Positions 1,373 through 48,778 of a DNA stretch of 64,000 nucleotides are shown one piece after another. The notes under the pieces were generated by a model. That model did not search any database, was not told where the DNA came from, and saw only the letters and a list, made by a program, of their open reading frames with translations. Origin of the DNA: Myxococcota bacterium (lineage in GTDB: Bacteria > Myxococcota_A > UBA9160 > UBA6930); NCBI GenBank assembly GCA_965223415.1, contig OZ245002.1, positions 5,408,001-5,472,000 on the forward strand, written 5' to 3'. Every line of letters starts with the position of its first letter. Positions within the stretch are counted from its first letter, which is position 1. A program made the translations under genes and the position numbers.

Positions 1373-1472
1373 TGTCTGGGCGGACGGGACTCGAACCCGC
1401 GGAGCCGGGCGATAAGACCCCGGAATCGTGAGGGTTTTTCTCGGCGACCCCGTGCTCAAGGTGTGCTCAAGG
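1373..1472 (-). repeat. Variant tRNA-Asp att-like module
   Basis: 1378-1400 identical to 23 nt of tRNA-Asp; GTGCTCAAGG at 1452 and 1463. Confidence 0.8.
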
Positions 1473-1516
1473 CGAGCAACCAACAGGCATCGGCGCGTCC
1501 GAGCCTTGGAGCCTCC

Positions 1517-1806
1517 CTAAGCCGCCGCCTCAAGGCTCTCGCGAATGATCCGTGGGTGACGTGCGGCGATCCGGAGCAGCGCGATCGCAGGACCCTCCGG
1601 CTGCCTCCGGCCCTGCTCCCAGTTGCGAAGCGTGTGGACGCTGATTCCCATCGCCTTCGCGAAGTCCGTCTGTGTCAGCCCCACGAAGGTGCGGAGCGCA
1701 GCGATGTCCTGTCCAGACTCGAAGCGGCCCTGTATCAGCCGCCTCCGAAACGGGCGGGAATCGCCCGCTTCAGCTGCTCTTCGGTGAGTTCGGGGATATC
1801 TGTCAT
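1517..1806 (-). pseudogene. XRE-HTH antitoxin, frameshifted
   Basis: MTDIPELTEEQLK start in one frame; LTQTDFAKAMGISVHTLRNWEQGRRQPEG HTH in another. Confidence 0.75.
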
Positions 1807-2092
1807 CGGCTCTGATCCATGTACGAGCGGTAAAGCGACCCCTCGCATGCGTTGGCCCAACGGGCGCCAATGATTCGAATGATGTCTTGTCGCGCTCGGT
1901 ATAGACGATGACCACGATTCGCCGCTCAATGGGACCGATCGCGATGAAGCGATCCTCGGAGTCGGAGTGTTCGCTGTGGAAGATCTCCAAGTAGTCGACA
2001 TCGGATTCGAAGAGCCATCGAGCCTCCCCGAACGAGATGCCGTGCTTCTCCTGGCTGAGCAGGTCCTTCGCATCGTCCCACTCGAAACGCAC
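1803..2092 (-). pseudogene. BrnT-family toxin, frameshifted
   Basis: MRFEWDDAK..KHGISF..EDRFIAIG; C-terminal IRIIGAR lies in a different frame after ~1890. Confidence 0.8.
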
Positions 2093-2102
2093 AGGGAAGA
2101 AG

Positions 2103-2135
2103 GTAAGTCATTGACTGACTAGGTCAGTGACTTAC
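2103..2135. promoter_or_regulatory. Probable TA operator
   Basis: GTAAGTCATTGAC-N7-GTCAGTGACTTAC inverted repeat (1 mismatch) just upstream of the BrnT start. Confidence 0.6.
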
Positions 2136-2229
2136 GTCATTGAGCCATGGCCTCGGTGGACGTCTGAAAACCGGCCAAAGGTGGACGTCTCAAAGGCGGC
2201 CAAAGGGCCGCGCCCAGGACAGAGGGGTT

Positions 2230-2991
2230 CTACCGCGCCGGGGCCTCCTTCGGCAAGGCGGTGGTCTTCTTGGTGCGCCAGCTGCGGGGTCCGCACTTGA
2301 GCAGGTGGCCGTGGTGGAGGAGGCGGTCGAGCATGGCGGTGACGGCTGCCGTGTCGCCGAGGAGCCGGCCCCAGTCGTCGACGGGTCGGTTCGAGGTGAC
2401 GAGGGTGCTGGTGCGCTCGTAGCGGCGCATGATCAGCTCGAGGAGGTCCTCGGCGGCCGTGGTGGGGAGCTTGCGCATGCCGAGGTCGTCGAGGATGAGC
2501 AGCGGCACTCTCGCGATCTCGGCCAGGTACTCCTTGCGGGTGCCGTCGAGGGTCGCATCAGCGAGTTCCTCGAGGAGGACGTGGACCTCGCGGTAGGCGA
2601 CGCGATGGCCCTGGTGGATGACGGCGAGGCCGATCGCCTGGGCGAGATGGCTCTTGCCCGTGCCCGGCGGGCCGAGGAAGACAGCGTCCTCGGCTTGCTC
2701 GAGGAAGCGGCCCGTGGCGAGCTCGAAGACCAGGGCGCGATCGATCTTCGTATTGAAGCGGAAGTCGAAGCCGTTGAGGGTCCGGTTGGCGTCGCGGAAG
2801 CGGGCCTGCTTGATGCGCCGGGCCAGCAGTCGGTCCTGCCGGCGCTCGAGCTCGTCCTGGACGAGCGCCGAGAGCAGGTCGATGGCCGCCCACTCGCCCT
2901 TCTGGGCTTCGAGGAGCCGCATCTCCAGATGCTCGGCCATGCCCGAGAGCCGGAGCTTGCGCAGTGCGGGATCGAGTTCAGTCAGATTCAC
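2230..2991 (-). CDS. istB: IS21 helper ATPase
   Basis: GPPGTGKS, LLILDDLG, TSNR, LDRLLHH. Confidence 0.95.
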   Translation of the reverse strand: MNLTELDPALRKLRLSGMAEHLEMRLLEAQKGEWAAIDLLSALVQDELERRQDRLLARRIKQARFRDANRTLNGFDFRFNTKIDRALVFELATGRFLEQAEDAVFLGPPGTGKSHLAQAIGLAVIHQGHRVAYREVHVLLEELADATLDGTRKEYLAEIARVPLLILDDLGMRKLPTTAAEDLLELIMRRYERTSTLVTSNRPVDDWGRLLGDTAAVTAMLDRLLHHGHLLKCGPRSWRTKKTTALPKEAPAR

Positions 2992-4567
2992 GAGAGGTCT
3001 CCTCGGTGCGGCGATCGATGAGATCGCGGTAGTGGGTGAGCTGGCGGATGAGCGGGTCCACCTGCTTGAGCGAGAGCGGCAGCTCGGGCTGACGCTCCAG
3101 GTAGCGCTTGACGAACGCGTAGGTGGGCAGCTCGAGGGCCAGGGCGGTGGCGCAGGCATCGTCGACGCGAGGGATGCCGTGGCGCTTGCACAGGGAGAGC
3201 ACGCCCAGGATGCGACGCACCCCGGGCTCGCCGTCCAGGCGATGGATCGCCTCACACACCTCGCCCACGTGGACGCCGGCGCGCCGGGCCCGCGCGAGCA
3301 GCTGGAGGGTCGTGGCCGGCGTCCGCTTCGGGCGGTCCTCCTCCCGCATCCTGCGGCGCCCCCGCCTCTGGCGGACGTGCTCGCGCAGCAGCTCCCCCGT
3401 CTGCAGATCGAGCATCCGCACCCGCAGCCCGTCCCATTGGACGGCCACCCGCCGCCCCAGCCAGCCCGGCGGCGCGTGGTAGTAGGCCCCCTCCACCTCG
3501 ATGGCCCCGTCGAGGTGCACCGTGCGCTCGCCGTGCTGGTAGTAGCGGAAGGGCTCGATGGGAAGCCCGAGCAGGTGCGGCTTCTCCTCTTCGTACATCG
3601 CCGCCACCTGGCGCTTGGTCGTGCCGTGGATGCGGGTGTCGGCCCATCGGCGCTCCCAGCGGTCGAGGTAGGCCTGGGCCTGCTCGAGCGACTCGAAGCG
3701 CATCCCGCGGACCTTCTGCTGCGCGTGGCGCACCCCGGACTCGACCTTCCCCTTGCGATCGGGGTGGCGCACCCGGCACGGAAGCGCCGTCACGCCGTAG
3801 TGGGCGAGCACATCGCGGTAGAGGGGGTTGAGCGCGGGGTCGTAGACGTCGGGCTTGAGAACGCCCTCCTTGAGGTTGTCGAGGACGACGGTGCGCGGTG
3901 CACCGCCCAGCCGGCGGAAGGCCTTCTCGTGCAGCTCCGACCAGACCTGGCTGCTCGACTTCCACACGAGCAGCCGAACGCACTTGCGGCTGTAGCCCAG
4001 GGTGAAGACGAACAGCCTCGTGCGCCGGTACTTCCCCGACCCGGGATGCCGCACCATCGGCCCGTCGCCGTAGTCGACCTGGCCCTCTTCTCCCGGTGCC
4101 GTCTCGATCACCGGGTGCGCCTCGCGCGGCGCCGCGGCTCGCTGCTTCGCCACGAAGCGCTTCACACTCGCATAGCTGAAGGCGAAGCCGTGGTCATCGA
4201 CTAGGTCCTGCCAGATCGCCATCGCCGTCCGGCCCTGGCGCACGCCCGCCTCGATCCACTCGCGGTAGGGCTCGCAGGCGCTGGCCTGGGGGCTCCGGCC
4301 CGGCATCGGCGGCCAGGCCGGATCGGTGGACGCCTCTTTGGCCGCTTTTGCCGGGGCCTTCGAGTCGGTGGACGCCTCTATGGCCGGGTTTGGGGCCCCG
4401 TGCCCCCAGCGACCAGGAGATCGCACCGCGATCCCCGCGGCCCGGAGGTAACGGCTCGCCGTCTCCCGGCGCACGCCCGTCGCCTCCTCGATCCGCCGAA
4501 GCGACCAGCCGAGGCGGCCAAGTGCCAGAATCTGCTCGCGTTTCTCGTTGCCCAGAAGGTTCGCCAT
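2978..4567 (-). CDS. istA: IS21 DDE transposase
   Basis: PGEEGQVDYG, VVLDNLK, KGKVESGV. Confidence 0.95.
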   Translation of the reverse strand: MANLLGNEKREQILALGRLGWSLRRIEEATGVRRETASRYLRAAGIAVRSPGRWGHGAPNPAIEASTDSKAPAKAAKEASTDPAWPPMPGRSPQASACEPYREWIEAGVRQGRTAMAIWQDLVDDHGFAFSYASVKRFVAKQRAAAPREAHPVIETAPGEEGQVDYGDGPMVRHPGSGKYRRTRLFVFTLGYSRKCVRLLVWKSSSQVWSELHEKAFRRLGGAPRTVVLDNLKEGVLKPDVYDPALNPLYRDVLAHYGVTALPCRVRHPDRKGKVESGVRHAQQKVRGMRFESLEQAQAYLDRWERRWADTRIHGTTKRQVAAMYEEEKPHLLGLPIEPFRYYQHGERTVHLDGAIEVEGAYYHAPPGWLGRRVAVQWDGLRVRMLDLQTGELLREHVRQRRGRRRMREEDRPKRTPATTLQLLARARRAGVHVGEVCEAIHRLDGEPGVRRILGVLSLCKRHGIPRVDDACATALALELPTYAFVKRYLERQPELPLSLKQVDPLIRQLTHYRDLIDRRTEETSRESD

Positions 4568-4774
4568 GGCGGCGGGGGATCGCAGGTCCCTCGCCGTCGT
4601 CAACGTCCTGGGCGTCAGCCCCTATGGCCGCTTTTCAGACGTCCTTCTATGGCCGGTTTTGGGTGTCCACCGAGGGCCATGGCGCAAGGCGCGCGCCCTG
4701 GACCGGGCGGTGCGTATCCCACTCGTATCCCGACTCCCAGGCGGTCGGGAAACCCTAGAGAATCCGGAACCTTG

Positions 4775-4871
4775 TGGCGGGGCGGACGGGACTCGAACCT
4801 ACAACCTCCGGCTGTAACTCCGCGGAAACCCGGGGGTTCGTGAGGCGGAGGCTTGTATCCCGTTGTATCCC
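4775..4871 (-). repeat. tRNA-Asp att-like module (97 bp)
   Basis: 4775-4799 identical to tRNA-Asp 3' 25 nt; TTGTATCCC at 4853 and 4863; CGTATCCC x2 also on the left (4713-4731). Confidence 0.92.
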
Positions 4872-4930
4872 ACCAGGGCGAGGGCGCTCCGGCTGGCTGG
4901 TGACCTCGCGCCTTGTGTAGCCTCTCACAC

Positions 4931-5131
4931 ATGGCGACCAACCTCGATCTCGACCCCAACCTCGTCGAGCGCGCCCTGGCCCTGAGCGGGGCCCCTACCA
5001 AGAAGGCGGCTGTGACGGCAGCCCTCCAGGAGTTCATCGCGCGGCGTGAGCAGCGCGGGCTCCTCGAGCTCTTTGGCAAGCTCGAGTGGGATCCTGGCTA
5101 CGACTACAAGCGTGAGCGCTCCCGGGATTGA
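4931..5131 (+). CDS. vapB: VapB-type antitoxin
   Basis: MATNLDLDPNLVERA..TKKAAVTAALQEF; overlaps the PIN gene. Confidence 0.85.
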   Translation: MATNLDLDPNLVERALALSGAPTKKAAVTAALQEFIARREQRGLLELFGKLEWDPGYDYKRERSRD

Positions 5132-5532
5132 GCCTGTTCGTCGACACGAGCGTCTGGTCGCTCGCACTGCGCCGCGACCGTCCACCCGACGTGCCAGAGG
5201 TCGGCGCGCTCGAGCGGGCGCTCGCGGAGGGCGAGTTGATCACTACCACCGGCCTCGTCTACCAGGAGCTCCTCCAGGGGTTCCATGGCCCGCGCGACCA
5301 GGAGGCGATCGTGGCGCACTTCGGCGCCCTGCCCTTCCTGACGCCCGATCGCCACGATCACTTCGAGGCCGCGCAGTTGCGCAACCGGGCCCGCCGTCGG
5401 GGAGTCCAGGTCGGCACGATCGACGCGATCCTCGCCCAGCTCTGCATCCGCTACGAGCTACGGCTGCTCACCACCGACGCGGACTTCGCGCGAATCGCCG
5501 AGCAAGAGCCGCTGGAGCGCTGGATGCCGTAG
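5128..5532 (+). CDS. vapC: VapC PIN-domain toxin
   Basis: FVDTSVW, ELLQG, TIDAILA, LLTTDADF. Confidence 0.9.
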   Translation: MSLFVDTSVWSLALRRDRPPDVPEVGALERALAEGELITTTGLVYQELLQGFHGPRDQEAIVAHFGALPFLTPDRHDHFEAAQLRNRARRRGVQVGTIDAILAQLCIRYELRLLTTDADFARIAEQEPLERWMP

Positions 5533-6991: not shown

Positions 6992-7897
6992 GTGAGTGTG
7001 TTCACGGACAAGGTCGCGATCATTACCGGCGGCGCTTCCGGCATCGGCCGGGCACTCGGGGAGGCGCTGGCCCGGGCGGGGGCGCGGGTGGTGCTCGCCG
7101 ACCGCGACGCGGAGCGGCTCTTCCGAGCAGGCGAAGGCCTCGGCTCCGCCGGTGCGAGGGCCCGGACGGCCATCCTCGATGTCCGGGACTCCCGCGCGGT
7201 ACACGAGCTCGTCGAGAAGACGGCGCAGGAGCACGGCCGGCTGGACTACCTCTTCAACAACGCCGGGATCGGCGTCTTCGGCGAGGCCCGCGACGTCTCA
7301 CTCGAGGACTGGCGCAACGTCGTCGACGTCGATCTCTACGGCGTCGTGCACGGTGTCACCGCCGCGTACCCGCTCATGGTGGAGCAGGGCTCCGGCCACA
7401 TCGTCAACACGGCTTCGCTCGCCGGATTGATTCCCGGGGTCGGCGGGGCCTCCTATTCTGCAGCCAAGTACGGCGTGGTCGGCCTCTCACACGCCCTGCG
7501 CTTGGAGGCGGAGGCTCTGGGCGTCAAGGTGAGCGTGGCGTGCCCCGGCTTCGTCGAGACGGCCTTCCAGACCAGCAAGGTGGTGGGGCTGAACCGCGAG
7601 GCGTTCCTCGCCGGAGCACCGAAGCTCATGCCCGCGGACCGGTGTGCGCGGGACATCCTGCGCGGAGTCGAGCGCAACCAGGAGACCATCGTCGTCAGCA
7701 CCCTCGCCAAGGTCGCCTGGCGCTCGTACCGGTACGCGCCCGGCCTGGTGAGGTGGACCATGCGAAGAACCCTCAGAGAGATGCGCGAACTGCGCACCGA
7801 GCCATCCAGACGTCAGGGGTCCGAGATCAGGCGCTCGCCGCACGACCAAGGGCAGCCAAAGCGCCGAACCAAGCACCGCCAGAACGAGAATAGATGA
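6992..7897 (+). CDS. Short-chain dehydrogenase/reductase; C-terminus reads into the repeat spacer
   Basis: TGGASGIG, NNAG, YSAAK. Confidence 0.88.
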   Translation: MSVFTDKVAIITGGASGIGRALGEALARAGARVVLADRDAERLFRAGEGLGSAGARARTAILDVRDSRAVHELVEKTAQEHGRLDYLFNNAGIGVFGEARDVSLEDWRNVVDVDLYGVVHGVTAAYPLMVEQGSGHIVNTASLAGLIPGVGGASYSAAKYGVVGLSHALRLEAEALGVKVSVACPGFVETAFQTSKVVGLNREAFLAGAPKLMPADRCARDILRGVERNQETIVVSTLAKVAWRSYRYAPGLVRWTMRRTLREMRELRTEPSRRQGSEIRRSPHDQGQPKRRTKHRQNENR

Positions 7898-7914
7898 ACG
7901 ATTCCGGGTACTTA
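7803..7914. repeat. Truncated copy of the conserved Arg-Asp spacer
   Basis: Aligns with 48589-48701 (GAACCAAGCACCGCCAGAACG shared). Confidence 0.8.
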
Positions 7915-8011
7915 TGGCGGGGCGGACGGGACTCGAACCTACAACCTTCGGCTGTAACTCCTCGGAAACGAAGGGGTTCTTGAGGCTGAAGCCTGTATCC
8001 CGTTGTATCCC
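7915..8011 (-). repeat. tRNA-Asp att-like module (97 bp)
   Basis: 25-nt tRNA 3' identity plus TGTATCCC x2. Confidence 0.92.
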
Positions 8012-8036: not shown

Positions 8037-8050
8037 TAGCCAATTGGCTA
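8037..8050. promoter_or_regulatory. Probable operator of the HTH/NTase pair
   Basis: Perfect palindrome TAGCCAATTGGCTA. Confidence 0.6.
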
Positions 8051-8061
8051 CCATTCGGACC

Positions 8062-8388
8062 ATGTCGGTCGCAAGCATCGTCCGGGAGGCCCGCCGCCGC
8101 GCGGGCCTGACCCAGGCCTCATTGGCCCAGAAGGCGGGCGTTCCGAAGTCCACCGTAGGCCGGATCGAGTCCGGGGCTCGAACGCCTTCGGTCGAGCTCG
8201 TGGAGCGGCTCGTCCGAGCGGCCGGGCTCGAGGTCACCATCGCCTTGTCCGAGCCCGATCCCGGAACCGACTCCTTGTTCGAGCGCACGCTACGCCGCAC
8301 ACCTGCAGAGCGACTCGCCGATGCGACTCGAGCGGCGCGCTTCGTCCTGCGCGGCAGGCGCGAGATCGCGGCCGCGGCCGATGGCTAG
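8062..8388 (+). CDS. XRE-family HTH protein (putative antitoxin)
   Basis: GLTQASLAQKAGVPKSTVGRIESG. Confidence 0.85.
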   Translation: MSVASIVREARRRAGLTQASLAQKAGVPKSTVGRIESGARTPSVELVERLVRAAGLEVTIALSEPDPGTDSLFERTLRRTPAERLADATRAARFVLRGRREIAAAADG

Positions 8389-8896
8389 TCGCGACTTCGA
8401 CCCGGAGAAGATGCTCTCCGTGCTGGCGGAGGCAGGCGTGGAGTTCGTCCTCATCGGCGGTATGGCGGCAATCCTGCACGGCGACGTCGGGGTCACCGTC
8501 GACCTGGATGTCGTTCCTGACCGCGAAGCGGCGAATCTCGAGCGTCTCGCGCGAGCTCTACAAGAGCTTGGAGCACGCATCCGCACCGAGGGTGAGCCGG
8601 AGGGATTGGCGTTCGATTGCTCGGCCCAGTTCTTCGCCAACCTGTCTCCTGACTCGATCGTGAACATGACCACGCAGGCAGGCGACCTGGACGTCACGTT
8701 CTGCCCGAGCGGAACGCAGGGCTTCCGGGACCTCCGGCGAGACGCCGTTGAAATCGAAGCGGCCGAGCGCCTACACATCCTGGTGGCATCGCTCGCAGAC
8801 ATCATTCGCTCGAAGGAAGCTGCCGGTCGAGAGAAAGACCGCCTCGCCCTGCCCCGCCTTCGTCGACTACTGGATCGCCTCGGCGAGAGCGAGTAG
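8381..8896 (+). CDS. Nucleotidyltransferase-fold protein (TA-like partner)
   Basis: LIGGMAA..HG..TVDLDV; SKEAAGREKD. Confidence 0.8.
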   Translation: MASRDFDPEKMLSVLAEAGVEFVLIGGMAAILHGDVGVTVDLDVVPDREAANLERLARALQELGARIRTEGEPEGLAFDCSAQFFANLSPDSIVNMTTQAGDLDVTFCPSGTQGFRDLRRDAVEIEAAERLHILVASLADIIRSKEAAGREKDRLALPRLRRLLDRLGESE

Positions 8897-8914: not shown

Positions 8915-9010
8915 CCCCCGACCCCCAGGTTCGAAGCCTGAAGGGACCCGTAGGAAATCCAAATAGTTACGGGATTCCGAGCGGGAATACGCGGGAATGA
9001 GCGGGAATAC
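8915..9010 (-). repeat. tRNA-Arg anticodon-arm fragment plus 3x10-bp repeat
   Basis: CCCCCGACCCCCAGGTTCGAAGCCTG (8915-8940); GCGGGAATAC/GCGGGAATGA/GCGGGAATAC (8981-9010). Confidence 0.85.
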
Positions 9011-10708: not shown

Positions 10709-11336
10709 GGACTTCGGGCTGCCGACGGCGATCCGCACCGACAACGGGGTTCCCTTCGCGTCGCCCAACGCACTCTTCGGTCTCTCGAGCTCTCGATCTG
10801 GTGGCTCAAGCTCGGCATCCAGATCCAGCGCATCAAGCCGGGCTGCCCCCAGCAGAACGGACGGCACGAACGCATGCATCTCACGCTCAAGAAAGAAGCC
10901 ACCAAGCCCGCGTCGTTCAACTTCCTGCAGCAGCAGGAGCGCTTCGACCGGTTCACAGGCGTTTACAATCACGAGCGACCGCACCAGGCCCTGGACGGGG
11001 CGTACCCCGGCGACGTCTATACACCTTCGCCGCGCGCCTACGAGCCGCCCGGGGAGCCCGAGTACCCGTTCCACGACCGATCCGTCCGGGTCACCCAGTG
11101 CGGTCGGATCTGCCTCGGACGCCGCAAGATCAATCTCAGCACCGTCTTCGCGGGCCAGACCGTGGGCCTCCGCGAGGTCGACGACCAGGTCTGGCTCGTC
11201 AGCTTCCTGGACTTCGATCTGGGCTTCTTCGACCAGGACGAGGGCCGGATCGAGCCCGCCCCGAACCCCTTCGGGCCCCAGAAAGTGTCAACCATGTCCC
11301 CGGAATGATCTGTAAACCATGTGCCCGGAATGGACC
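10709..11336 (+). mobile_element. IS481-family 3' fragment with right end
   Basis: IRTDNG, PQQNGRHERMHLTLK, YNHERPHQAL; repeated TGTMAACCATGT ends; 1-nt frameshift near 10788. Confidence 0.85.
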
Positions 11337-11346
11337 GCGGAATCTT

Positions 11347-11424
11347 TGGCACGCCGGGAGGGATTCGAACCCCCGACCCCCAGGTTCGAAGCCCGATGCT
11401 CGATGTCGAACCACCGGACAACGC
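11347..11424 (-). repeat. tRNA-Arg(TCG)-like element with intact 3' half and aberrant 5' half
   Basis: Loop CTTCGAA, T arm GGGGG-TTCGAAT-CCCTC, CCA end; 6-nt D loop, 4-nt insertion in the acceptor strand. Confidence 0.8.
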
Positions 11425-11555
11425 AGTTCGAAGAGCCGCGCGCTTCCGGGCGTCGGGGATCCGAGATCTGGCGCTCCGCGCAACAACCAAGGGCAACCAT
11501 AGCGCCGAACCAAGCACCGCCAGAACGCGAATTACTCAGCGAATCCAGCGGGTTA
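11425..11555. repeat. Conserved Arg-Asp spacer
   Basis: Homologous to 41883-42013 and 48571-48701; AACCA(A/T) x3. Confidence 0.85.
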
Positions 11556-35704: not shown

Positions 35705-35754
35705 GGTTTCTCCTCGGGGCAAAATGCAACTCGGCCGCACTGGGATGTTCGACA

Positions 35755-37980: not shown

Positions 37981-39738
<1,758 letters not shown>

Positions 39739-39879
39739 TGGACGCGAGGGCCGACCCGGGGCTCACGATCTGAAGGCGAGGTCGCCCTCCGCTCGGTGGC
39801 CGACACGGCGGAGCTGGGGCCGGGAACACTGGAGATCTCCCGTGGTTGCGCCACCGTCGGAACGGCGAGGAGGACCCAC

Positions 39880-41646
39880 ATGGCTTGGCTCGACGAACTC
39901 ACTGCGATCGGACGTCTAGTAGGGAGCGCTCGACGTGCGCTGCCCAAATCGAACTGGACCATGACGCGGCTGCTCGAGGAGCGCGCACACCGGGCGCCCG
40001 GCGATCTTGCCCTCGCGTACCTCGATCGTCGGTATACCTGGGGCGAGATCGACCAGCACGCGAATCGCTGGGCCCACGTGTTCCTGGACGAGGGCATCGA
40101 GCCCGGCGACATCGTGGCGCTGATCATGGACAACCGACCGGAGTACCTCTTCGCGGTCCATGGCCTCGCGAAGGTCGGTGCGGCGGCGGCGCTGATCAAC
40201 ACGAATCTCACGGGTCAGTCCCTCGTCCACGCGATCACCGTGGGGAACTCGCGCAAGGTCGTCGCCGGCGACGAGCACGCGGCCGCCGTCGAAGAGGTGA
40301 TCGCGGAGCTCGAGACCCTCGACGACGAGCACCCGGTCCTGCTCCACGTGGAGGACGCGACGCAGCCGCGACCCGGTGGGGGCGTGCCGCTCAACGAGGC
40401 GCTGCAGTCGGCCCAGGCGTCGAAGCCGCAGGTCGCAGTCGAGGCCGACTCCGAGATCCTCTTCTGCTTCATCTACACGTCCGGGACGACGGGGCTGCCG
40501 AAGGCTGCGGTCGTCTCGCACCGGCGCGCGATGATCGGGGGGCTCGGCGCTGCGCACCTCATGATGCGGCTCGAGCCGGGTGACGTGAGCTACGTGGCCC
40601 TGCCGCTCTATCACTCGAGCGCGATGTTCATCGGCTGGAGCGCCGTGCTGAACTCCGGCGCTGCGATGGCGTTGCGGCGCAAGTTCTCGGTCACGCATTT
40701 CTGGGACGACGTGCGTCGCTTCGGCGCCACGCACTCCGTCTACATCGGCGAGCTGTGTCGCTACCTCCTGAACGGGGAGCCCGGTCCGGGCGATCGCGAC
40801 CACGACCTGCGTTGCGTAATGGGCAACGGACTGCGACCGGACATCTGGAACGAGTTCCAGGAGCGCTTCGGGATCCCGGAGATCCGCGAGTTCTATGGCG
40901 CCACCGAAGGCACGGCGGGGCTCATGAATCGCACGGGCAAGCCGGGCATGGTGGGCAAGATCGGCTTCGGCATGAAGCTGGTCACCTGCAACCAGGAGAC
41001 CGGCGAGCCGATTCGCGGCGCCGACGGTTTCTGTACCCCGGTCGACCCGGGGCAGATCGGCCTGCTGCTGGGACCGATCTCGAAGGCGACCTCGTTCGAC
41101 GGCTACGTCGACCGGGAGGCCTCGCAGAAGAAGATCCTGACGGACGTGTTCAAGAGCGGCGATCGCTTCTTCAACACGGGGGACCTGTTGCAACTCCACG
41201 AGGGCAAGTGGCTCTCGTTCGCGGATCGGGTGGGGGACACCTTCCGCTGGAAGGGCGAGAACGTCTCGACCAACGAGGTCGCGGAGGTCTGCAACGGAGC
41301 GCCGGGTGTGCTCGAGACCAACGTCTACGGCGTTCAGGTTCCGGGCGCAGACGGCCGGGCCGGCATGGCGGCGATCGACACGGACGAGGGCTTCGACCTC
41401 GAGGCGTTCGCCGGGTTCGTGAAGTCGGCGCTTCCCGGCTACCAGCGTCCGCTCTTCGTGCGCCTGCTGGGCGGCGAGATGCAGACCACCGGCACCTTCA
41501 AGCACCAGAAGGTGCGATACCGCAACGAGGCGTTCGATCCCGGCCAGTGCGAGGACCCGCTCTACTACTTCGATGGCGAGTCGTATCGGCCCATCGACGC
41601 CGCGGTCTTCGACGCCATCGGCAAAGGCGAGATCCGGGTGGGCTAG
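39880..41646 (+). CDS. Long-chain acyl-CoA synthetase (FATP/FadD6-like)
   Basis: IYTSGTTGLPK, YIGELCRYL, DRVGDTFRWKGENVST. Confidence 0.92.
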   Translation: MAWLDELTAIGRLVGSARRALPKSNWTMTRLLEERAHRAPGDLALAYLDRRYTWGEIDQHANRWAHVFLDEGIEPGDIVALIMDNRPEYLFAVHGLAKVGAAAALINTNLTGQSLVHAITVGNSRKVVAGDEHAAAVEEVIAELETLDDEHPVLLHVEDATQPRPGGGVPLNEALQSAQASKPQVAVEADSEILFCFIYTSGTTGLPKAAVVSHRRAMIGGLGAAHLMMRLEPGDVSYVALPLYHSSAMFIGWSAVLNSGAAMALRRKFSVTHFWDDVRRFGATHSVYIGELCRYLLNGEPGPGDRDHDLRCVMGNGLRPDIWNEFQERFGIPEIREFYGATEGTAGLMNRTGKPGMVGKIGFGMKLVTCNQETGEPIRGADGFCTPVDPGQIGLLLGPISKATSFDGYVDREASQKKILTDVFKSGDRFFNTGDLLQLHEGKWLSFADRVGDTFRWKGENVSTNEVAEVCNGAPGVLETNVYGVQVPGADGRAGMAAIDTDEGFDLEAFAGFVKSALPGYQRPLFVRLLGGEMQTTGTFKHQKVRYRNEAFDPGQCEDPLYYFDGESYRPIDAAVFDAIGKGEIRVG

Positions 41647-41804
41647 GCGCTCCGAGCTTCCTCGGCTGGGTGCTTAACTGCGCAGTGCCGTCACTGCTGG
41701 CTGGCCTGGAACGGCAACGCATCGAGTCGCTTCGCATCTAATGCTGAGCCCCAGGTGCGTTGCCTGAGGCTCGATGCTGCCGTGCGGTAAGTGCGCGAGT
41801 TCGC

Positions 41805-41882
41805 TGGCACGCCGGGAGGGATTCGAACCCCCGACCCCCAGGTTCGAAGCCTGGTGCTCGATGTCGAACCACCGGACAACGC
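41805..41882 (-). repeat. tRNA-Arg(TCG)-like element with intact 3' half and aberrant 5' half
   Basis: CCAGG-CTTCGAA-CCTGG arm, T arm, CCA; near copy of 11347-11424. Confidence 0.8.
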
Positions 41883-42013
41883 AGTTCGAAGAGCCGCGCG
41901 CATCCAGCGTTCAGCGGCCCGGAACCAGGCGCTCGCCGCGACAACCAAGCACGACCAAAACGCGAAATCAGACACCGCCAGAACGCGAATTCCTCAGCGA
42001 ATCCGGCGACTTG
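41883..42013. repeat. Conserved Arg-Asp spacer
   Basis: Same length as and homologous to 11425-11555. Confidence 0.85.
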
Positions 42014-42110
42014 TGGCGGGGCGGACGGGACTCGAACCTACAACCTCCGGCCGTAACTCCGCGGAAACGCAGGGGTCCGGATCGGTGAAGCTTGTATCCC
42101 GTTGTATCCC
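42014..42110 (-). repeat. tRNA-Asp att-like module (97 bp)
   Basis: 25-nt tRNA 3' identity plus TTGTATCCC x2. Confidence 0.92.
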
Positions 42111-42303
42111 AACCTCTCCGGGACCCCCCGCTGCCCCGAGCGCAGTGGGGTTTGGCGGGACCCAGTCAACCAGGTGCGACCAGTTCGAACCGGACTTCGC
42201 GCGAAGAGGACGCGGGAATCGAACCCGGGCTCAAGGGACGCAAGCGCCGGAAAGGAGTGGCGTCGATCTCTCGTATCGTCACTCACCACCCGTGAGGCGT
42301 GCA

Positions 42304-43383
42304 TCATTCGCCCGCCGCGGCGGACTGAAGCCGCGCCCGTCGACGGATCTCCGAAGGCGCGCATTGCGCCCAGCGCTTGAACGCCTTGCGGAAATTCGAG
42401 GCGTCCTCGAACCCGACCCGTCGCCCGATCTCGTCCACGGGAATGCGCGTGTTCTCCAGATACTCGACCGCCACCGACAAGCGTGTTTCATCGACGAGCT
42501 GCTGGAAGCGAAGCCCGTCGTCGCGAAGACGCCGGTAGAACGTCCGGAGGGATAGACCGAGGTTCTTGGCGATCTCAGGTGCGGTCGAAGCATACCCCTG
42601 GCGCGCGAGGCAGAGCCTTCGAACGTCCCGAGCAAGTCTCGTTTCCCCGACGCCGCTCGACACGATGCGTTCGCAGAAGTCCTGACACACGCGTGCGGTG
42701 GCATCGCTCGCCTCGGGACAGGGCCGTTCCAGAACGGCCGCATCGAAGTGCCACTCCATCACATCGCTGGCGAAATGGATCGGACATCGGAGCGCGTCGC
42801 GGTACGCCGCTGCGTGGGCAGGCGCTTCGTACGGGAAGTACATCGCGCTCGAGGGGAAAGGCGCCCCGACCACGTAGCCGAGTAGCGTCGACATCGAGCT
42901 TCGCCAGAACTCGGCCACGAATGGGAGCGCACTGCCCAGCGAGTGCGCATCGTGGGAGCGCAAGACGCCCACGTCGCCCTGCAGCTCGAAGGTGATGCGC
43001 AGGACGGGACCGGCGAGCTCCAGGTGCTCGAGACCGAACTCGAACGCTTCGCCGACGGTACGACTCGTCAACAGCGCATAGCCGAAGAGGCCGAAGTCGC
43101 TGATGCGCTGCCGCGCGCCGGCCCGCAGGGCCGTGTCAGGCCGTCGTGCGAGGCGCTCGGCGCTTCGCAGCAGCGCAACTCGCCGACCATGATCGATCGG
43201 GTGCTCGGAACTCAACGCGTCGCCCAATGTGACGCCCGACGCGGAAGTCCATGCTCGGTGATCGATGCCCTGCTCGGCGAGCTCGCGGCCGAGCGCGTCG
43301 AGTCCGAAGCCGAGGGAGGCTCCGGACGAGAGGTCAACGGGGACTTCCGGACGTTCTCGTTGAATGGGCAGCTGGGAGGGCAC
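42304..43383 (-). CDS. AraC-family regulator
   Basis: LGLSLRTFYRRL, VGFEDASNFRKAFKRW; start uncertain. Confidence 0.9.
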   Translation of the reverse strand: MPSQLPIQRERPEVPVDLSSGASLGFGLDALGRELAEQGIDHRAWTSASGVTLGDALSSEHPIDHGRRVALLRSAERLARRPDTALRAGARQRISDFGLFGYALLTSRTVGEAFEFGLEHLELAGPVLRITFELQGDVGVLRSHDAHSLGSALPFVAEFWRSSMSTLLGYVVGAPFPSSAMYFPYEAPAHAAAYRDALRCPIHFASDVMEWHFDAAVLERPCPEASDATARVCQDFCERIVSSGVGETRLARDVRRLCLARQGYASTAPEIAKNLGLSLRTFYRRLRDDGLRFQQLVDETRLSVAVEYLENTRIPVDEIGRRVGFEDASNFRKAFKRWAQCAPSEIRRRARLQSAAAGE

Positions 43384-43521
43384 CGGCCGACGTTCCTCGC
43401 TATTCGCTCGAGCCTTCGAGCCTAGGATGGCACGATTTCACTCGATGATTGGCAGGATATCACCTCACAGTCGGTGGCGCTGTCGCAGATACTCCTGGTG
43501 CCCGTCGAGCAGGAGTCCCCG

Positions 43522-44940
43522 ATGACGACCCAGCCCCCCATCGAAGCCCTGTCCCAACGACTCCGATCCCAACGCGCCGCCTTCGCCGCGGAGCCGTACC
43601 CGACGCTGGCTCGGCGGCGCGAGTGGATCGATCGCATCCTCGACATGACCGCCCGCTACCAGCACGAGATCGTCGAGGCGGCACACGTGGATTTCGGGGG
43701 CCGCGCGCCGGCCGAGACGACCATGGTCGAGGTCTTCGGAACGACCGCCAACGCGCGCAACACAAAACGCCGCCTGAAGAAGTGGATGCGCGCTCGCCGG
43801 ATGCCCACCGCGCCGCCCTTCCGGCCCGGCTACAACCGTCTCATGGCGCAGCCCGTAGGCGTCGTCGGTGTGATCGCGCCGTGGAACCTCGCCTACAACC
43901 TCTCGATGGGGCCGGCGATCGCAGCGTTTGCCGCGGGGAACCGTGTCATGTTGAAGCCAAGCGAGATCACGCCGGCCAGTGCCGAGCTGATCCGTCGCAT
44001 GGTCGGCGAGAACTTCGACCCCGACGAGTTCGACGTCTTCCCGGGTGGTCCGGAGCTGGCTGCTGCCTTCTCGGAGCTTCCCTTCGACCATCTCCTCTAC
44101 ACGGGATCGACGTCGATCGGTCGGCGCGTGGCCGAGGCCGCCGCGCGCAACCTCACGCCGGTCACGCTCGAGCTCGGCGGCAAGAGCCCCGTCATCATCG
44201 ACGACTCCGCGGACTTCAAGCGAGCGGCACGGCGCATCGCGTTCGCCAAGCTCCTCAATGGCGGCCAGATCTGCATCGCCCCCGACTACGCGCTCGTGCC
44301 GCGTTCACGGCGTGACGAGTTCGCCCAGGCGGTCATCGCGGAGGCGTGTGACCTCTACCCCGACGCCACTACGAACGACGACTACTGCTCGATCGTGTCC
44401 GACCGGCATCATGAGCGCCTGCTCGGGCTGTTGTCGGAGGCGAGAGCCGCTGGCACCGAGGTGTTGAACGTGGCGCGCATCGAAGAGAGCCACGATCGCC
44501 GGATCCCCATGCAGATCCTGCTCGACCCGGACGAGAAGCTCGGCGTCATGAAGGAGGAGATCTTCGGGCCGCTCCTGCCCGTCGTCTCCTACGAAACGCC
44601 CGATGAGGCCATCCGCTACGTGAACGAACGGCCGCGCCCCCTCGCGCTCTACTGGTTCGGCCAGGATCAGAAGCGTCGAGAAGAGGTGCTCCACCAGACG
44701 ATTAGCGGTGGCGTCACGATCAACGACGCGATCTGGCACTTCGCCCAGGAGGACCAACCCTTCGGCGGTGTCGGCGAGAGCGGCATGGGCGCCTATCACG
44801 GCGAGGCGGGCTTCCGCACCTTCTCGAAGGAGAAACCCGTCTACCACTCGGCGGCGTGGCCGTACTCGATGGCGATGTTCCAACCGCCCTATTCCGACCG
44901 CACCCTGAAGCTACTGGAATTCCTGCGGCGGATCGTTTGA
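43522..44940 (+). CDS. Aldehyde dehydrogenase (coniferyl-aldehyde DH-like)
   Basis: LELGGKSP, GQICIAPDY, EEIFGP, PFGGVGESGMG. Confidence 0.92.
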   Translation: MTTQPPIEALSQRLRSQRAAFAAEPYPTLARRREWIDRILDMTARYQHEIVEAAHVDFGGRAPAETTMVEVFGTTANARNTKRRLKKWMRARRMPTAPPFRPGYNRLMAQPVGVVGVIAPWNLAYNLSMGPAIAAFAAGNRVMLKPSEITPASAELIRRMVGENFDPDEFDVFPGGPELAAAFSELPFDHLLYTGSTSIGRRVAEAAARNLTPVTLELGGKSPVIIDDSADFKRAARRIAFAKLLNGGQICIAPDYALVPRSRRDEFAQAVIAEACDLYPDATTNDDYCSIVSDRHHERLLGLLSEARAAGTEVLNVARIEESHDRRIPMQILLDPDEKLGVMKEEIFGPLLPVVSYETPDEAIRYVNERPRPLALYWFGQDQKRREEVLHQTISGGVTINDAIWHFAQEDQPFGGVGESGMGAYHGEAGFRTFSKEKPVYHSAAWPYSMAMFQPPYSDRTLKLLEFLRRIV

Positions 44941-44983
44941 CCGCGAATCCACCGACCCAATCCGACTCACAAGGAGAGAACCC

Positions 44984-45763
44984 ATGTCAGAAGAGACCTC
45001 CGTGAGCTACGAGCAGGACGGCCCGCTGGGCATCCTGACGATGCACCACGCCCCGCACAATCTGCTGGGTCCTCCCTTGATGAAGGGCGTGCGCGACGCG
45101 CTGGCCACCGCAGAGAAGGAAGGTGCGAGAGCGGTCCTCCTCAAGAGCGGCTTGCGGCATTTCTCGGCGGGCGCCGACATCGCGCTCTTCGAAGGCGCCA
45201 TGGACGGAGGCGGCGGACTCGAGCTCTCGCCTGTCAACTTCCTGAAGGTGCTCGAGGCGTTCCCGCTGCCGATGGTGGCAGCCGTGCACGGCGTCTGTGT
45301 CGGCGGCGGTCTGGAGCCCGCCCTCACGTGCGACTTCATCATCGCCGCGCGCTCTTCGAAGATCGGATCGGTCGAGGCCACGATCGGGCTCAATCCGCTC
45401 ATGGGCGCGATCCAACGGCAGGTCCAGCGGGCCGGGGCGCTCCGCGCCAAGGAGATGTCGATGCTCGGCCGGCGCTATGACGCCGAGACCCTCGAACGCT
45501 GGAATCTCGTGAACCGCGTGGTCGACGACGAGAACCTCGAAGCGGCCGCCCACGCCGTGGCGATGGAACTCGCCAACGGTCCGACGGTCGCACACCGCAT
45601 CACGAAGGAGCTCGCGCGCATTGCGGAAGACGAAGGCGTTGCAGCGGCGGACGCGGTGATGGAGGAGAAGCAGAAGGCGCTCTGGTCGTCCGAGGATCTG
45701 AAGATCGGCCTCGAATCGCTCATGAAGAACGGTCCGGGCCTCGCCCGCTTCGAGGGGAGGTAA
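44984..45763 (+). CDS. Enoyl-CoA hydratase/isomerase
   Basis: FSAGAD, VHG.CVGGGLE..CD. Confidence 0.88.
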   Translation: MSEETSVSYEQDGPLGILTMHHAPHNLLGPPLMKGVRDALATAEKEGARAVLLKSGLRHFSAGADIALFEGAMDGGGGLELSPVNFLKVLEAFPLPMVAAVHGVCVGGGLEPALTCDFIIAARSSKIGSVEATIGLNPLMGAIQRQVQRAGALRAKEMSMLGRRYDAETLERWNLVNRVVDDENLEAAAHAVAMELANGPTVAHRITKELARIAEDEGVAAADAVMEEKQKALWSSEDLKIGLESLMKNGPGLARFEGR

Positions 45764-45766
45764 ACC

Positions 45767-47089
45767 ATGTCGGGACCTCTCGAAGGACTCAAGGTCGTCG
45801 ATTTTTCGCGCGTATTGGCCGGTCCGCTCTGCGCGCGCACGCTGCAGGACCTCGGCGCGGAGGTGCTCAAGATCGAGCCGCCGCGTGCAGACGTCTCCCG
45901 CTTCTCGGCTCCGATCAATCCCAACGGCATGTCGGGCTACTACGCCCAACAGAACGCCGGCAAGCGGAACATCTCGATCGATCTCAATCGGCCGGAGGCG
46001 CGGGAGATCGCGCTCAAGCTATGTGACGAAGCGGACGTACTCGTCGAGAATTTCCGGCCGGGGGCACTCGGTGCATTCGGGCTCGACTACGCGACGCTCG
46101 CCGAGCGTAATCCGCGACTCATCTACGTCTCGATCTCGGGCTACGGGCAAGGCGGTCCCTTCAAGGGGCGCATGGCCTACGCGCCGACCGTTCAGGCCGA
46201 GGCGGGCTTCACCCATCACTCCCTTCGCCACTTCGGGGAGAATCTCCAGGCGCCCCAGACCGACGCCCTCTCCCACGCCGACGTCTACGCCGGCTTGCAG
46301 GGGGTGATCGCGGTGCTCGCCGCCGTCCGCCAGAGGGAGACGACGGGGACCGGGCAGCACATCGACGTGGCGATGGCGGCAACGGTGATCGCGATCAACG
46401 AGCGCGCGCACGTCGATCTCAACGGGCTCGAGCTCGAGGACGAGCCCGCGATCCTCGGCGCGACCGATGGCTCGTTCTTCACGGGACCGGGTGGCGAGCC
46501 GTTCATCTCCGCGATCAGCATCGTCGGAACGATCACCTTCCGCTTCTTCATGGCGGCGATGCGCCGACCCGACCTCGCCCTCGACCCGCGCTTCGCAACA
46601 CCCGGCGCGCGCCGGGCGAACCTCGAATCCCTGAAAGACGTGATCCAGTCGTGGATCTACTCCTTCCCCGACATGGCCTCCCTCGACGCTCAGCTCGACG
46701 AAGCGAAGATCGCGATCGGAGAGATCCGACCGCTCCAAGAAGTGGCCGAGTCCGAGTGGGCCGACTACTGGACTGCGACCCACGAGGTCTCGGACCGCAA
46801 CGGCGGCTCGTTTCGGCTACCGGGCCGACCGTGGAGGTTCTCGGGCGCGGAACTCTCTCCGCCCGGCGAGCCAGCGCTCCAGGGCGAGCACAACGCTCAG
46901 GTCTGCTCCGAGCTCGGACTCGACGATGCCGCAGTCAAGGAACTCGAAGAAGCGGGCGTACTGGTCGGAAACTTCGCAGCGCGAATGATCGAGAGCGTCG
47001 AGCAGAGTGTCGCGGCCGATCTCGCGCGGATCAACGCGGCACCCGAAGTGGCCGATTCGTCGGAAGGCGCGGGAGATCGACCTGAATGA
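45767..47089 (+). CDS. Family III CoA-transferase (CaiB/BaiF)
   Basis: LAGP..DLGAEVLKIE, NAGK, ENFRPG. Confidence 0.9.
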   Translation: MSGPLEGLKVVDFSRVLAGPLCARTLQDLGAEVLKIEPPRADVSRFSAPINPNGMSGYYAQQNAGKRNISIDLNRPEAREIALKLCDEADVLVENFRPGALGAFGLDYATLAERNPRLIYVSISGYGQGGPFKGRMAYAPTVQAEAGFTHHSLRHFGENLQAPQTDALSHADVYAGLQGVIAVLAAVRQRETTGTGQHIDVAMAATVIAINERAHVDLNGLELEDEPAILGATDGSFFTGPGGEPFISAISIVGTITFRFFMAAMRRPDLALDPRFATPGARRANLESLKDVIQSWIYSFPDMASLDAQLDEAKIAIGEIRPLQEVAESEWADYWTATHEVSDRNGGSFRLPGRPWRFSGAELSPPGEPALQGEHNAQVCSELGLDDAAVKELEEAGVLVGNFAARMIESVEQSVAADLARINAAPEVADSSEGAGDRPE

Positions 47090-48351
47090 CGACGGTCGAC
47101 GAGACCCACGACCCGCAGCTCCGGAGCTGGGTCACGAGCGCGAACGATCCCGACTCGGACTTTCCGATCCAGAATCTCCCGTTCGGCATCTATCGATCGC
47201 GCGACGCCGGATCGCAATGGCGGGGCGGTGTGGCAATCGGCGACCAGGTCTTCGACCTGGCCGCCGTCGACGCGGAGACCGGCCCGACCTTGAACCCACT
47301 GGCTGCTGCCGGTCGATCGACCTGGCGAGACTTGCGCCAGAGGCTCTCGCACGCGCTTTCCGATCGGGGCCACTCCGCGAAGCTCGAGCGATACCTGACT
47401 TCCCTTTCGGACGTCGAGCTCGGTCTCCCCGTCGCCGTCGGCGACTACACCGACTTCTACAGCTCGTATTTCCATGCGTATCACGCAGGGCAGCTCTTTC
47501 GTCCCGATGATCCGCTCACGCCGAACTTCAAGTGGATTCCCATCGGCTACCACGGCCGGTCCTCGTCGATCGTGCCGAGCGGAGCTCCCGTCTACCGGCC
47601 GTCGGGGCAACAGTCGCCCGAAGGCGAGGGCCCGCCGATGTTCGGCCCCTCGAAGGCACTGGACTACGAGGTCGAGCTCGGACTCGTCGTCGGCCCGGGG
47701 AACGAGCGCGGCAATGCGATCCCCATCGATCGTGCGGAGGACCATCTCTTCGGTGTCGTTCTTCTGAATGACTGGTCCGCGCGCGACGTTCAGGCCTGGG
47801 AGTATCAACCGCTCGGCCCCTTCCTCTCGAAAAGCTTCGCGACGACACTATCGCCTTGGGTCGTCACCCTCGAGGCGCTCGCGCCGTTTCGCGCCCCCGC
47901 CTTCGCGCGTTCGCAGGGGGATCCGGAGCCGCTGCCCTACCTGACCGATTCGCGCAACGAAAAGCGGGGCCACTTCGACATCCAGGTCGAGGCGTGGATC
48001 AGGACGGCGGACGCGACCCGGCCGTATCGCCTGTCTCATAGCTCGTATGCGACGAGCTATTGGACAGCCGCGCAGCTCATCACGCACCACACCTCCAACG
48101 GCTGCCCTCTCGAGCCAGGTGATCTCCTGGGAACCGGAACCGTGTCAGGACCGAACCCGGAAGAGGCAGGGACGTTGCTCGAGCTGTCGAAAGCCGGCGC
48201 ATCGCCAGTAGTGCTGCCCGACGGTGCCAAGCGCGGATTCCTCGAGGATGGTGATGAGCTCGTGCTGCGCGCAGGCTGCAATGCGGAAGGCTACCGAGGA
48301 ATCGGGTTCGGTGAGGCAACCGGAACGGTGGCTGCCACGGTCGATTCTTGA
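47086..48351 (+). CDS. fahA: Fumarylacetoacetase
   Basis: FPIQNLPFG, DYTDFY, YHGRSSS, NDWSARDVQAWEYQPLGPF. Confidence 0.93.
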   Translation: MTTVDETHDPQLRSWVTSANDPDSDFPIQNLPFGIYRSRDAGSQWRGGVAIGDQVFDLAAVDAETGPTLNPLAAAGRSTWRDLRQRLSHALSDRGHSAKLERYLTSLSDVELGLPVAVGDYTDFYSSYFHAYHAGQLFRPDDPLTPNFKWIPIGYHGRSSSIVPSGAPVYRPSGQQSPEGEGPPMFGPSKALDYEVELGLVVGPGNERGNAIPIDRAEDHLFGVVLLNDWSARDVQAWEYQPLGPFLSKSFATTLSPWVVTLEALAPFRAPAFARSQGDPEPLPYLTDSRNEKRGHFDIQVEAWIRTADATRPYRLSHSSYATSYWTAAQLITHHTSNGCPLEPGDLLGTGTVSGPNPEEAGTLLELSKAGASPVVLPDGAKRGFLEDGDELVLRAGCNAEGYRGIGFGEATGTVAATVDS

Positions 48352-48532
48352 ATCGAACTGCAGCGGTCGAGACCCCTGGCACCGATTTCTCACCGCAGAT
48401 CAACGCATTGCTCCGCCAGCGAGCTCTCGCGAGTGTGCGGAGACACCGCGAGAGCTGCAGCCTATCCGACGGTTCGGTTGCGCCGGAGCCTCCGGGCAGG
48501 CGATCCCAGGTCCGATCGACCAGGCGGACCCA

Positions 48533-48701
48533 GACCCCCAGATGCTCGATGTCGAACGGCCGGACAACACAGTTCGGACAGACGCGCGCATCCAGGCGTC
48601 AGGACTCCGAGATCGGGCGCTCGCCGCGACAACCAAGCGCAGCCAAAGCCCCGAACCAAGCACCGCCAGAACGCGAATTCCTCAGCGAATCCAGCGGCTT
48701 G
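48533..48701. repeat. Arg-Asp spacer with a deleted Arg site
   Basis: GACCCCCAG joined directly to ATGCTCGATGTCGAAC; rest homologous to 11396-11555. Confidence 0.85.
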
Positions 48702-48778
48702 TGGCGGGGCGGACGGGACTCGAACCCGCAACTTCCGGCGTGACAGGCCGGTGCTCTAACCAATTGAACTACCGCCCC
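48702..48778 (-). tRNA. tRNA-Asp(GTC)
   Basis: 77-nt cloverleaf: GGGGCGG/CCGCCCC acceptor, CCGGC-CTGTCAC-GCCGG, TTCGAGT, CCA. Confidence 0.97.

Follow-up and report, generated by a model that had tools for sequence, protein, structure and literature searches.

Comparison with described systems

In integrons, intI lies beside the cassette array together with attI and Pc, the attC sites are imperfect palindromes recognised as folded single strands, and the cassettes are mostly single promoterless open reading frames (ORFs). Myxococcus phage Mx8 targets a tRNA-Asp 3' end. In PMC6070905, attP of this phage is placed inside int. The cis-mobilizable elements (CIMEs) of the ICESt1 type in Streptococcus thermophilus are described in PMC5704250 as flanked by att sites, devoid of integration and transfer genes and able to accrete by site-specific recombination. 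According to PMC4383910, the Islander program admits an array only when every island encodes an integrase of its own, and its list of 3919 islands includes 4 arrays with three or more members. Here we describe an array in a 64,000-nucleotide stretch of a Myxococcota genome (contig OZ245002.1, positions 5,408,001 to 5,472,000, assembly GCA_965223415.1; hereafter the window), in which six consecutive units are bounded by copies of the 3' end of a tRNA-Asp gene. With a probability that we put at roughly 0.65, the array arose by tandem accretion of at least six integrase-less islands at the tRNA-Asp 3' end, as CIME-like derivatives of a tRNA-Asp-specific island family.

Comparing the array with CIMEs so described, it becomes apparent that integration and transfer genes are likewise absent while flanking att sites are kept, with cores and arms at both ends of units 2-6. 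Similarly, the units are stacked in tandem at the 3' end of the target gene, decayed integrases occur in related units, and mobilization by a related integrase would be expected. However, at least six integrase-less units follow one another here, the 64 kb contain no functional partner element, unit size is very small, a toxin-antitoxin (TA) head recurs, and a second type of site is nested within them. Moreover, its junctions are conserved as complete attP-like sites across genomes, neither conjugation genes nor their remnants are present, and the lineage is high-G+C and Myxococcota-like rather than Firmicutes. With the islands of Islander, as that program defines them, the array shares an intact tRNA gene accompanied by displaced 3' tDNA fragments in direct orientation (six here), a crossover in the T-stem/loop region and metabolic cargo, whereas none of its six units has an integrase of its own and the Islander filter would reject it. 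Since island-finding programs need an integrase per island, arrays like this one would be missed, and keyword searching of the literature found no description of such arrays in these organisms.

As in chromosomal integrons, many small units follow one another in one orientation with recombination sites between them, TA pairs occur within the array, cargo varies between genomes, and excision of any unit via neighbouring sites is conceivable. However, intI, attI and Pc are lacking, with no PF00589 match among 145 + 23 + 67 window ORFs on both sides of the tRNA. The sites are direct, tRNA-derived, double-stranded and of attP type with arm repeats, instead of folded attC, and the units comprise 2 to over 10 genes and bring regulators and promoters of their own. 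The likeness to Mx8 lies in an integrase frame that crosses the complement of the tRNA end ('STGLEP' in Mx8 Int; 'GRTGLEP' in P0010 and P0013, two proteins described below), and P0013 aligns to Mx8 Int at 30% over 102 aa (E 4e-6), a distant relation. In contrast, the units are not prophages, the cores differ, with no word longer than 12 nt in common with the window tRNA, and a tblastn search with Mx8 Int for an Mx8-type remnant in the window and eight related loci gave nothing below E about 1. Beyond 'TGLEP' a similar motif was observed, PLILLTFYA in P0013 (residues 368-399) and PVLLGSFYA in Mx8 Int (residues 441-469, L020:5085-6806), which hints at a common attP-inside-int layout.

The tRNA-Asp core and the boundary junctions

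The repeat that delimits the units is a 25-mer, TGGCGGGGCGGACGGGACTCGAACC, the complement of the tRNA-Asp 3' end, with exact copies at 4775, 7915, 11556, 26721, 42014 and 48702 and a seventh copy, with two mismatches, at 1373. All seven lie on the + strand (mean in 100 shuffles, 0.00), and consecutive copies are 3402, 3140, 3641, 15165, 15293 and 6688 bp apart. A preliminary description of the window had reported these positions in a single orientation and units of about 3.4, 3.1, 3.6, 15.2, 15.3 and 6.7 kb, and our measurements agree with it on both counts. The copy at 48702 belongs to the intact tRNA-Asp gene, while the other six are displaced 3' fragments oriented like that gene. The core at each unit boundary is the 25-bp tRNA-Asp 3' end, from the T-loop to CCA, in the orientation of the gene. 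It is identical at 25/25 positions across all five type-A pseudo-sites, the arms around it being just 67-91% alike. The G+C content is 64-72% in the island left of the tRNA and 70-76% in the flank to its right.

Alignment of seven junctions, drawn from the window and three other loci, and of eight P' arms reveals a conserved attP-like structure of about 190 bp at internal boundaries, consisting of a P' arm, the 25-bp core, approximately 53 nt, and two phased direct repeats of 9-10 bp. Right of the core, the sequence mimics the tRNA up to the anticodon stem, with a mismatched T-stem, and is followed by a conserved CGGAAACG block. The type-A P arm contains two TTGTATCCC repeats, 10 bp apart and exactly 53 nt from the core. 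The type-B P arm, found at 1373 and in one copy at locus L009, has the same architecture with two GTGCTCAAGG repeats 54 nt from the core, and the repeats are phased by 10-11 bp across both types. A P' arm, termed P'(A), lies left of four cores (7915, 11556, 42014 and the real tRNA); its final 85 nt or so contain three AACCAAG-like repeats, and it is common to four junctions in other genomes. The 4775 module has another left flank with two GTATCCC repeats, a TCGTATCCC match at 4723-4731 and a copy about 10 nt upstream in the alignment. These sequence features reproduce the attP layout of tyrosine integrases, namely a core shared with attB and arms that carry phased arm-type repeats.

The internal boundaries look like complete attP sites (P'-core-P), the structure that tandem integration of elements with a shared attP produces. 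Around one core, at least four kinds of left flank are combined with two kinds of right flank, which is what recombination at the core would produce. At L009:11572-11694, the usual P arm is fused, at the T-loop, to the 3' end of another tRNA, which puts the crossover within the T-loop portion of the core. The real tRNA locus has no P arm, its position being taken by the tRNA body.

Several other natures of the junctions were considered and rejected. The arms are without strong codon periodicity, and as coding remnants they were dismissed on variable sites of 30/45/34 (left) and 15/26/18 (right) by codon phase and on stops in some copies. A tblastn match of residues 317-419 of integrase P0028 to 41772-42050 (31%) was judged unconvincing. 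A folded RNA or single-stranded DNA site found no support in a consensus fold of 14 modules, with compensatory change in 1/22 pairs and a covariation term of +0.79. An Rfam scan at gathering scores gave tRNA matches only, and blastn of 41790-42200 against phage and plasmid collections matched only tRNA-Arg genes (query 15-73).

Additional tRNA-like sequences were observed near the cores. Two more T-arm/3'-end fragments, at 5545-5555 and 42215-42225, lie on the minus strand and are oriented like the other fragments, the former directly after VapC and the latter in the conserved extension to the right of the 42014 module, which reaches this third tRNA 3' fragment at about 42215; both are possibly remnants of other integration events. 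A terminator-like hairpin with a T-run, in the tRNA orientation, lies left of two cores, at 26640-26720 and 1312-1372. These sequences may represent what natively flanked a tRNA-Asp gene in the chromosome, in which case the window could hold two array ends or a former second tRNA-Asp locus.

A cognate tyrosine integrase family

Since the frame of Mx8 Int extends across the complement of its tRNA target, with attP inside int, a protein collection was searched with the translated junction. It matched nine longer proteins and one of similar length, 10 junction-spanning ORFs in total. Among them, P0010 corresponds to the C-terminal region of a tyrosine recombinase (PF00589 positions 102-170, E 5e-5), and its frame continues from the recombinase part into the core and the type-A P arm. 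The recombinase part of P0010 retrieved 21 full-length integrases of 345-446 aa (P0013-P0033), each with a PF00589 match. Seven of these 21 have a frame that enters the tRNA-Asp complement, implying that these integrase genes sit against tRNA-Asp and read toward it. P0023, P0024 and P0026 end as a translation of the genuine tRNA up to the anticodon loop, and the final 18 residues of P0028 are the translation of window positions 48703-48756. No close solved structure for the family was found by sequence.

A profile built from the 21 sequences was searched against six-frame fragments of the window and the eight related loci. It revealed an internally deleted, frameshifted remnant at L019:10166-10624 (E 8e-20) and L019:10371-10619 (E 7e-10), adjoining the module core L019:10073-10097, as well as a C-terminal integrase piece at L009:17485-17871 (E 6e-5) beside a type-B module and a weaker piece at L005:14772-14993 (E 0.004). 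These decayed genes sit at the P' side of three modules. A 407-aa ORF at the expected integrase place in L005 (13440-14660, minus strand) was rejected, as it has no Pfam match and no recombinase motif and looks secreted, with an N-terminus that resembles a signal peptide by eye.

The window itself yielded no integrase. Pfam searches found no PF00589, resolvase or recombinase in 145 ORFs of at least 120 aa starting before 49 kb, no recombinase in 23 further ORFs that include the genes at 49-64 kb, and none in 67 ORFs of at least 55 aa from the remaining 6.8 kb without a named gene, which is scattered in pieces of at most 770 bp. The 145 + 23 ORFs account for nearly the whole array, and relaxase or conjugation domains were absent from the window Pfam matches. 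The family profile gave a best E of 4.2 against all six-frame window fragments of at least 15 aa, with no remnant. At the position where a family integrase would sit against tRNA-Asp, the window has nothing but the P' arm and a gene for a hydrolase. A 291-aa frame on the other side of the tRNA (48772-49644, minus strand) was set aside as an Arg/Pro/Ser-rich off-frame translation, unlike the ORF in the same position at L006, and an unnamed 183-aa ORF at 6315-6863 matched nothing in Pfam, NCBIfam or PDB sequences.

Related modules in other genomes

Scanning genome contigs with the 18-mer of the double repeat gave 19 loci, eight of which carry true modules; the other 11 have the 18-mer with no tRNA fragment and were set aside as unrelated. 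By BLAST, the eight loci contain 12 related modules in other high-GC metagenome-assembled genomes, labelled by their submitters mostly as Myxococcota or deltaproteobacteria and some otherwise. At L006, two modules downstream of tRNA-Asp form a second array, and the SCP2 gene across the tRNA is orthologous to that of the window. Module DNA is 79-91% identical between genomes, compared with 68.6% (DNA) and 54% (protein) for this syntenic gene. Six modules occur within 21 kb on one contig (L005/L009/L010). The contents of these units differ from those of the window, comprising an acyltransferase, an epimerase with Maf, and nitrile hydratase alpha and beta; all that the two sets have in common is the RelE/HI1420 TA pair, found at L019. 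A 1.5-kb unit between two modules (L009:10115-11586) carries only nitrile hydratase beta and alpha and is the most cassette-like unit seen. No integrase was matched by Pfam in 135 of the 412 ORFs of at least 90 aa at seven loci, the 135 being those with coding-like G+C at third codon positions, or among 39 small module-adjacent ORFs in the related loci.

Toxin-antitoxin heads and nested tRNA-Arg-type sites

A TA pair follows the module in five of the six units (units 1-5), and a duplicated head of about 0.9 kb, with 91-97% mosaic identity, is common to units 4 and 5 (self-BLAST). The pair of unit 4 is split by an IS21 insertion (about 11988-14280), and that of unit 5 is 90-96% identical in protein sequence to the module-adjacent pair at L019. 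In unit 1, the BrnT and helix-turn-helix domains share one 191-aa frame instead of forming two genes.

A second repeat, a 19-mer complementary to the anticodon stem-loop of tRNA-Arg(TCG), has five copies on the + strand against 0.02 expected. Three of them (8923, 14708 and 29024) come right after TA pairs and have their own phased repeats 40-48 nt farther on. The other two, at 11378-11396 and 41836-41854, lie inside tRNA-Arg-like sequences (Rfam 30 and 36.9 bits) next to the P'(A) arm, where units 3 and 5 end on the right. In these two Asp-bounded units, nested direct Arg-type repeats therefore enclose the cargo. This Arg site also follows a module at L003 (L003:1317-1400). The preliminary description had proposed a common layout of Asp module, TA pair, Arg site, cargo and spacer; the TA pair held for five of six units, but the left Arg site is present in only three of six, and the supposed spacer is the conserved P' arm at four junctions.

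Origin of the array

A trans-acting tyrosine integrase most likely built the array, and its cognate family has been identified. Family islands would have inserted successively through crossovers within the T-loop portion of the core, with the integrase gene of an island normally lying at the tRNA-proximal (P') end and reading toward the core. Later loss of the integrase gene would have left CIME-like units with intact flanking sites, which a family integrase in trans could excise as circles and re-insert. Such excision is conceivable given that no site element has been lost from the junctions and their cores are exact. The TA pairs beside the P arm would hinder unit loss, and a second integrase specificity, using the tRNA-Arg sites, may have put the cargo of units 3 and 5 into 'attP + TA' platforms. 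Judged from the sequence, present-day mobilization in trans is plausible. If the units are still moved in this way, they represent a hidden route for the shuffling of whole catabolic operons in soil bacteria that have received little study. The junctions of about 190 bp and the matching integrase family are, in addition, a potential site/enzyme pair for genetic tools in Myxococcota-like organisms.

Several points weigh against this explanation. The window contains no integrase, so that a trans-acting enzyme has to be assumed in this organism, and none of the six units holds a recognizable integrase remnant, the origin by integrase loss being deduced from three units elsewhere. The adjacency of integrase genes to the sites is read from frames that enter the core, and the arm repeats are taken as protein-binding sites from their position, phasing and conservation. 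Unit 6 (42014-48701) is without a TA pair, and only two modules of the relatives, at L018 and L019, have TA genes on the P-arm side. The heavy load of insertion sequences (IS) suggests a region that is decaying and not maintained.

This last point would fit a pure relic, a fossil of integrase-bearing islands since decayed, with unused sites among which nothing moves now. Integrase pseudogenes do adjoin modules in relatives, IS colonisation is accompanied by gene fragments such as the C-terminal molybdopterin-oxidoreductase piece at 10372-10956, the leftmost core carries two mismatches, and the module family is rare among proteins, with the 10 junction-spanning ORFs as its total. However, five pseudo-cores have remained identical at all 25 positions though the neighbouring arms differ by 10-30%, and the junctions, whose arms read as non-coding, diverge less from one genome to another than does the orthologous gene next to them. 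One module-TA head precedes different cargo in units 4, 5 and L019, and full-length integrases of the family exist. While the IS load and pseudogenes point toward decay, the exact cores, the cross-genome conservation of the junctions and the reuse of the head point toward continued movement, and we consider the pure relic rather unlikely. Segmental duplication or homologous recombination of copies downstream of tRNA-Asp, with no site-specific recombination, could account for the P'(A) arm beside the real tRNA also flanking three internal cores and for the shared head of units 4 and 5. It appears highly improbable, as flank types switch exactly at the core, the P arm gives way to the tRNA body at the real locus, one module is joined at the T-loop to the end of another tRNA, and cognate integrases are linked to the identical core and arm.

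The preliminary description had instead seen an integron analogue in the array, that is, purpose-built non-autonomous cassettes served by one domesticated integrase in trans, with cargo captured and shuffled at a fixed platform. The absence of integrases across about 47 kb and six units, the order of module, TA pair, Arg site and cargo in three units, the tiny size of some units (about 0.9 kb for unit 1 without its IS; 1.5 kb for the nitrile hydratase unit), TA pairs reminiscent of chromosomal integron arrays, and the different and variable cargo of relatives all speak for this idea. Its observational part stood, including the one-orientation array, the bounds set by tRNA-Asp repeats, the recurring layout, the tRNA-derived sites, and the lack of a tyrosine or serine integrase in the window, which the ORF-level Pfam scans and the family-profile search confirmed. 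A distinct integron-like system, however, is improbable, since the anchor has no adjacent integrase on either side, the sites are not attC-like and a fold is unsupported, and whole operons are carried with their own TetR or AraC regulators. Integrase remnants inside units, which the description itself had named as evidence against it, are absent from all six window units but occur beside modules in three units of relatives. Together with family genes abutting the tRNA, these remnants suggest that the islands are normally autonomous. The remnants also point to an origin by integrase loss, as in CIMEs, and away from purpose-built cassettes. The integron analogy is therefore fair as a description of how the array might work, whereas membership fails on integrase, site type and cassette structure. 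A further proposal is a two-tier platform at tRNA-Asp in high-G+C, Myxococcota-like bacteria, in which minimal 'attP + TA' docking units, stacked by one integrase specificity, take up catabolic operons at the nested tRNA-Arg-type sites by a second specificity, with the integrases in trans. The delivery of cargo into small 'attP + TA' units by a second integrase is something we infer from the position of the Arg sites, and the two-tier platform is quite unlikely overall. If true, it would be a functional integron analogue made from tRNA-derived double-stranded sites and moving whole operons. Tandem accretion of integrase-less islands remains our preferred explanation, and the array looks like an unusually long and tidy case of known island stacking and not a new kind of integron.

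Features of the array and its surroundings

The cargo consists of catabolic enzymes plus TetR and AraC regulators by Pfam, and the features are collected in Table 1. The junction of the 26721 core contains an extra TTGTATCCC pair at 26603-26622.

Table 1. Sites, toxin-antitoxin genes, cargo and insertion sequences of the array, in window coordinates
Feature	Position	Strand	Details	Evidence
tRNA-Asp(GTC)	48702..48778	-	intact; array anchor (attL side)	ARAGORN; Rfam RF00005, 70.8 bits
Type-B module	1373..1472	+	core 1373-1397 (2 mismatches), GTGCTCAAGG at 1452 and 1463	87.5% identical to L009:17558-17653
Type-A module	4775..4871	+	25-bp core, P arm with two TTGTATCCC	repeat match, alignment
Full attP-like junction	7817..8011	+	P'(A), core 7915-7939, P(A)	alignment
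Full junction	11336..11652	+	tRNA-Arg-like 11354-11417, P'(A), core 11556-11580, P(A)	Rfam 30 bits, alignment
Junction	26603..26817	+	terminator-like P'(B) 26640-26720, core 26721-26745, P(A)	family D7; 81.8% to L018
Full junction	41794..42207	+	tRNA-Arg-like 41812-41875, P'(A), core 42014-42038, P(A), conserved extension	Rfam 36.9 bits
P'(A) arm	48482..48701	+	directly downstream of the real tRNA-Asp; tRNA-Arg-like part degenerate	family D2, 68%
Left Arg site, unit 3	8923..9010	+	1 mismatch; CGGGAATAC at 8982 and 9002, degenerate copy CGGGAATGA between	
Left Arg site, unit 4	14708..14791	+	exact 19-mer, then GGGTGCA twice, 14775-14791	
Left Arg site, unit 5	29024..29107	+	2 mismatches, then GGGTGCA twice, 29091-29107	
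TA-like gene, unit 1	1520..2092	-	BrnT toxin domain, helix-turn-helix (MqsA/NadS-like) antitoxin-like domain	Pfam, NCBIfam
TA pair, unit 2	4913..5529	+	VapB 4913-5128, VapC/PIN 5128-5529	Pfam
Putative TA pair, unit 3	8044..8893	+	Xre-type helix-turn-helix 8044-8385, DUF6036 nucleotidyltransferase 8321-8893	Pfam
TA pair, unit 4	11718..14649	+	RelE/ParE-family toxin (upstrm_HI1419) 11718-11990, HI1420-type antidote 14350-14649	Pfam, NCBIfam
TA pair, unit 5	26883..27507	+	intact RelE/ParE-type and HI1420-type pair as in unit 4	Pfam, NCBIfam
Cargo, unit 5	29183..41643		between Arg sites; P450, amidohydrolases, two acyl-CoA dehydrogenases, TetR, metal hydrolase, luciferase-like monooxygenase, AMP-binding enzyme	Pfam
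Cargo, unit 6	42307..48348		AraC regulator, aldehyde dehydrogenase, enoyl-CoA hydratase, CoA-transferase III, fumarylacetoacetase-family hydrolase	Pfam
IS21-family element	2233..4603	-	istA/istB; most of unit 1	Pfam
IS21	12062-14142; 17964-20454			Pfam, self-BLAST
IS21	23220-25300	-		Pfam, self-BLAST
IS5-like	16656-17771	-		Pfam
IS481-like	20612-21682; 21930-22844; 10589-11305		the last a fragment	Pfam
IS110	27566-28978			Pfam

On the 5' side of the tRNA, a polysaccharide-type cluster at 49810-63981 includes sulfotransferases, three GT4 glycosyltransferases, a sugar nucleotidyltransferase and a C-methyltransferase. By Pfam, the genes to the right of the tRNA are SCP2, a TPR/sulfotransferase, glycosyltransferases, the sugar nucleotidyltransferase and the C-methyltransferase, with no integrase among them.

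The array contains nine IS copies or fragments, namely four of IS21, three IS481-like, one IS5-like and one IS110, and the size of unit 1 without its IS, given above, follows from the coordinates by arithmetic. Two IS21 copies, at 11949-14281 and 23081-25412, are 99.6% identical over 2334 bp and inverted relative to each other; the former splits the unit 4 TA pair, and three more IS lie between and around the two. An isolated C-terminal molybdopterin-dinucleotide-binding domain of the DMSO-reductase family, encoded on the minus strand, is a gene remnant that abuts the IS481 fragment. One IS481-like gene is found in two pieces, a 5' part at 21930-22844 and a 3' part at 10589-11305, which share an identical 80-nt stretch, suggesting an IS-mediated rearrangement.

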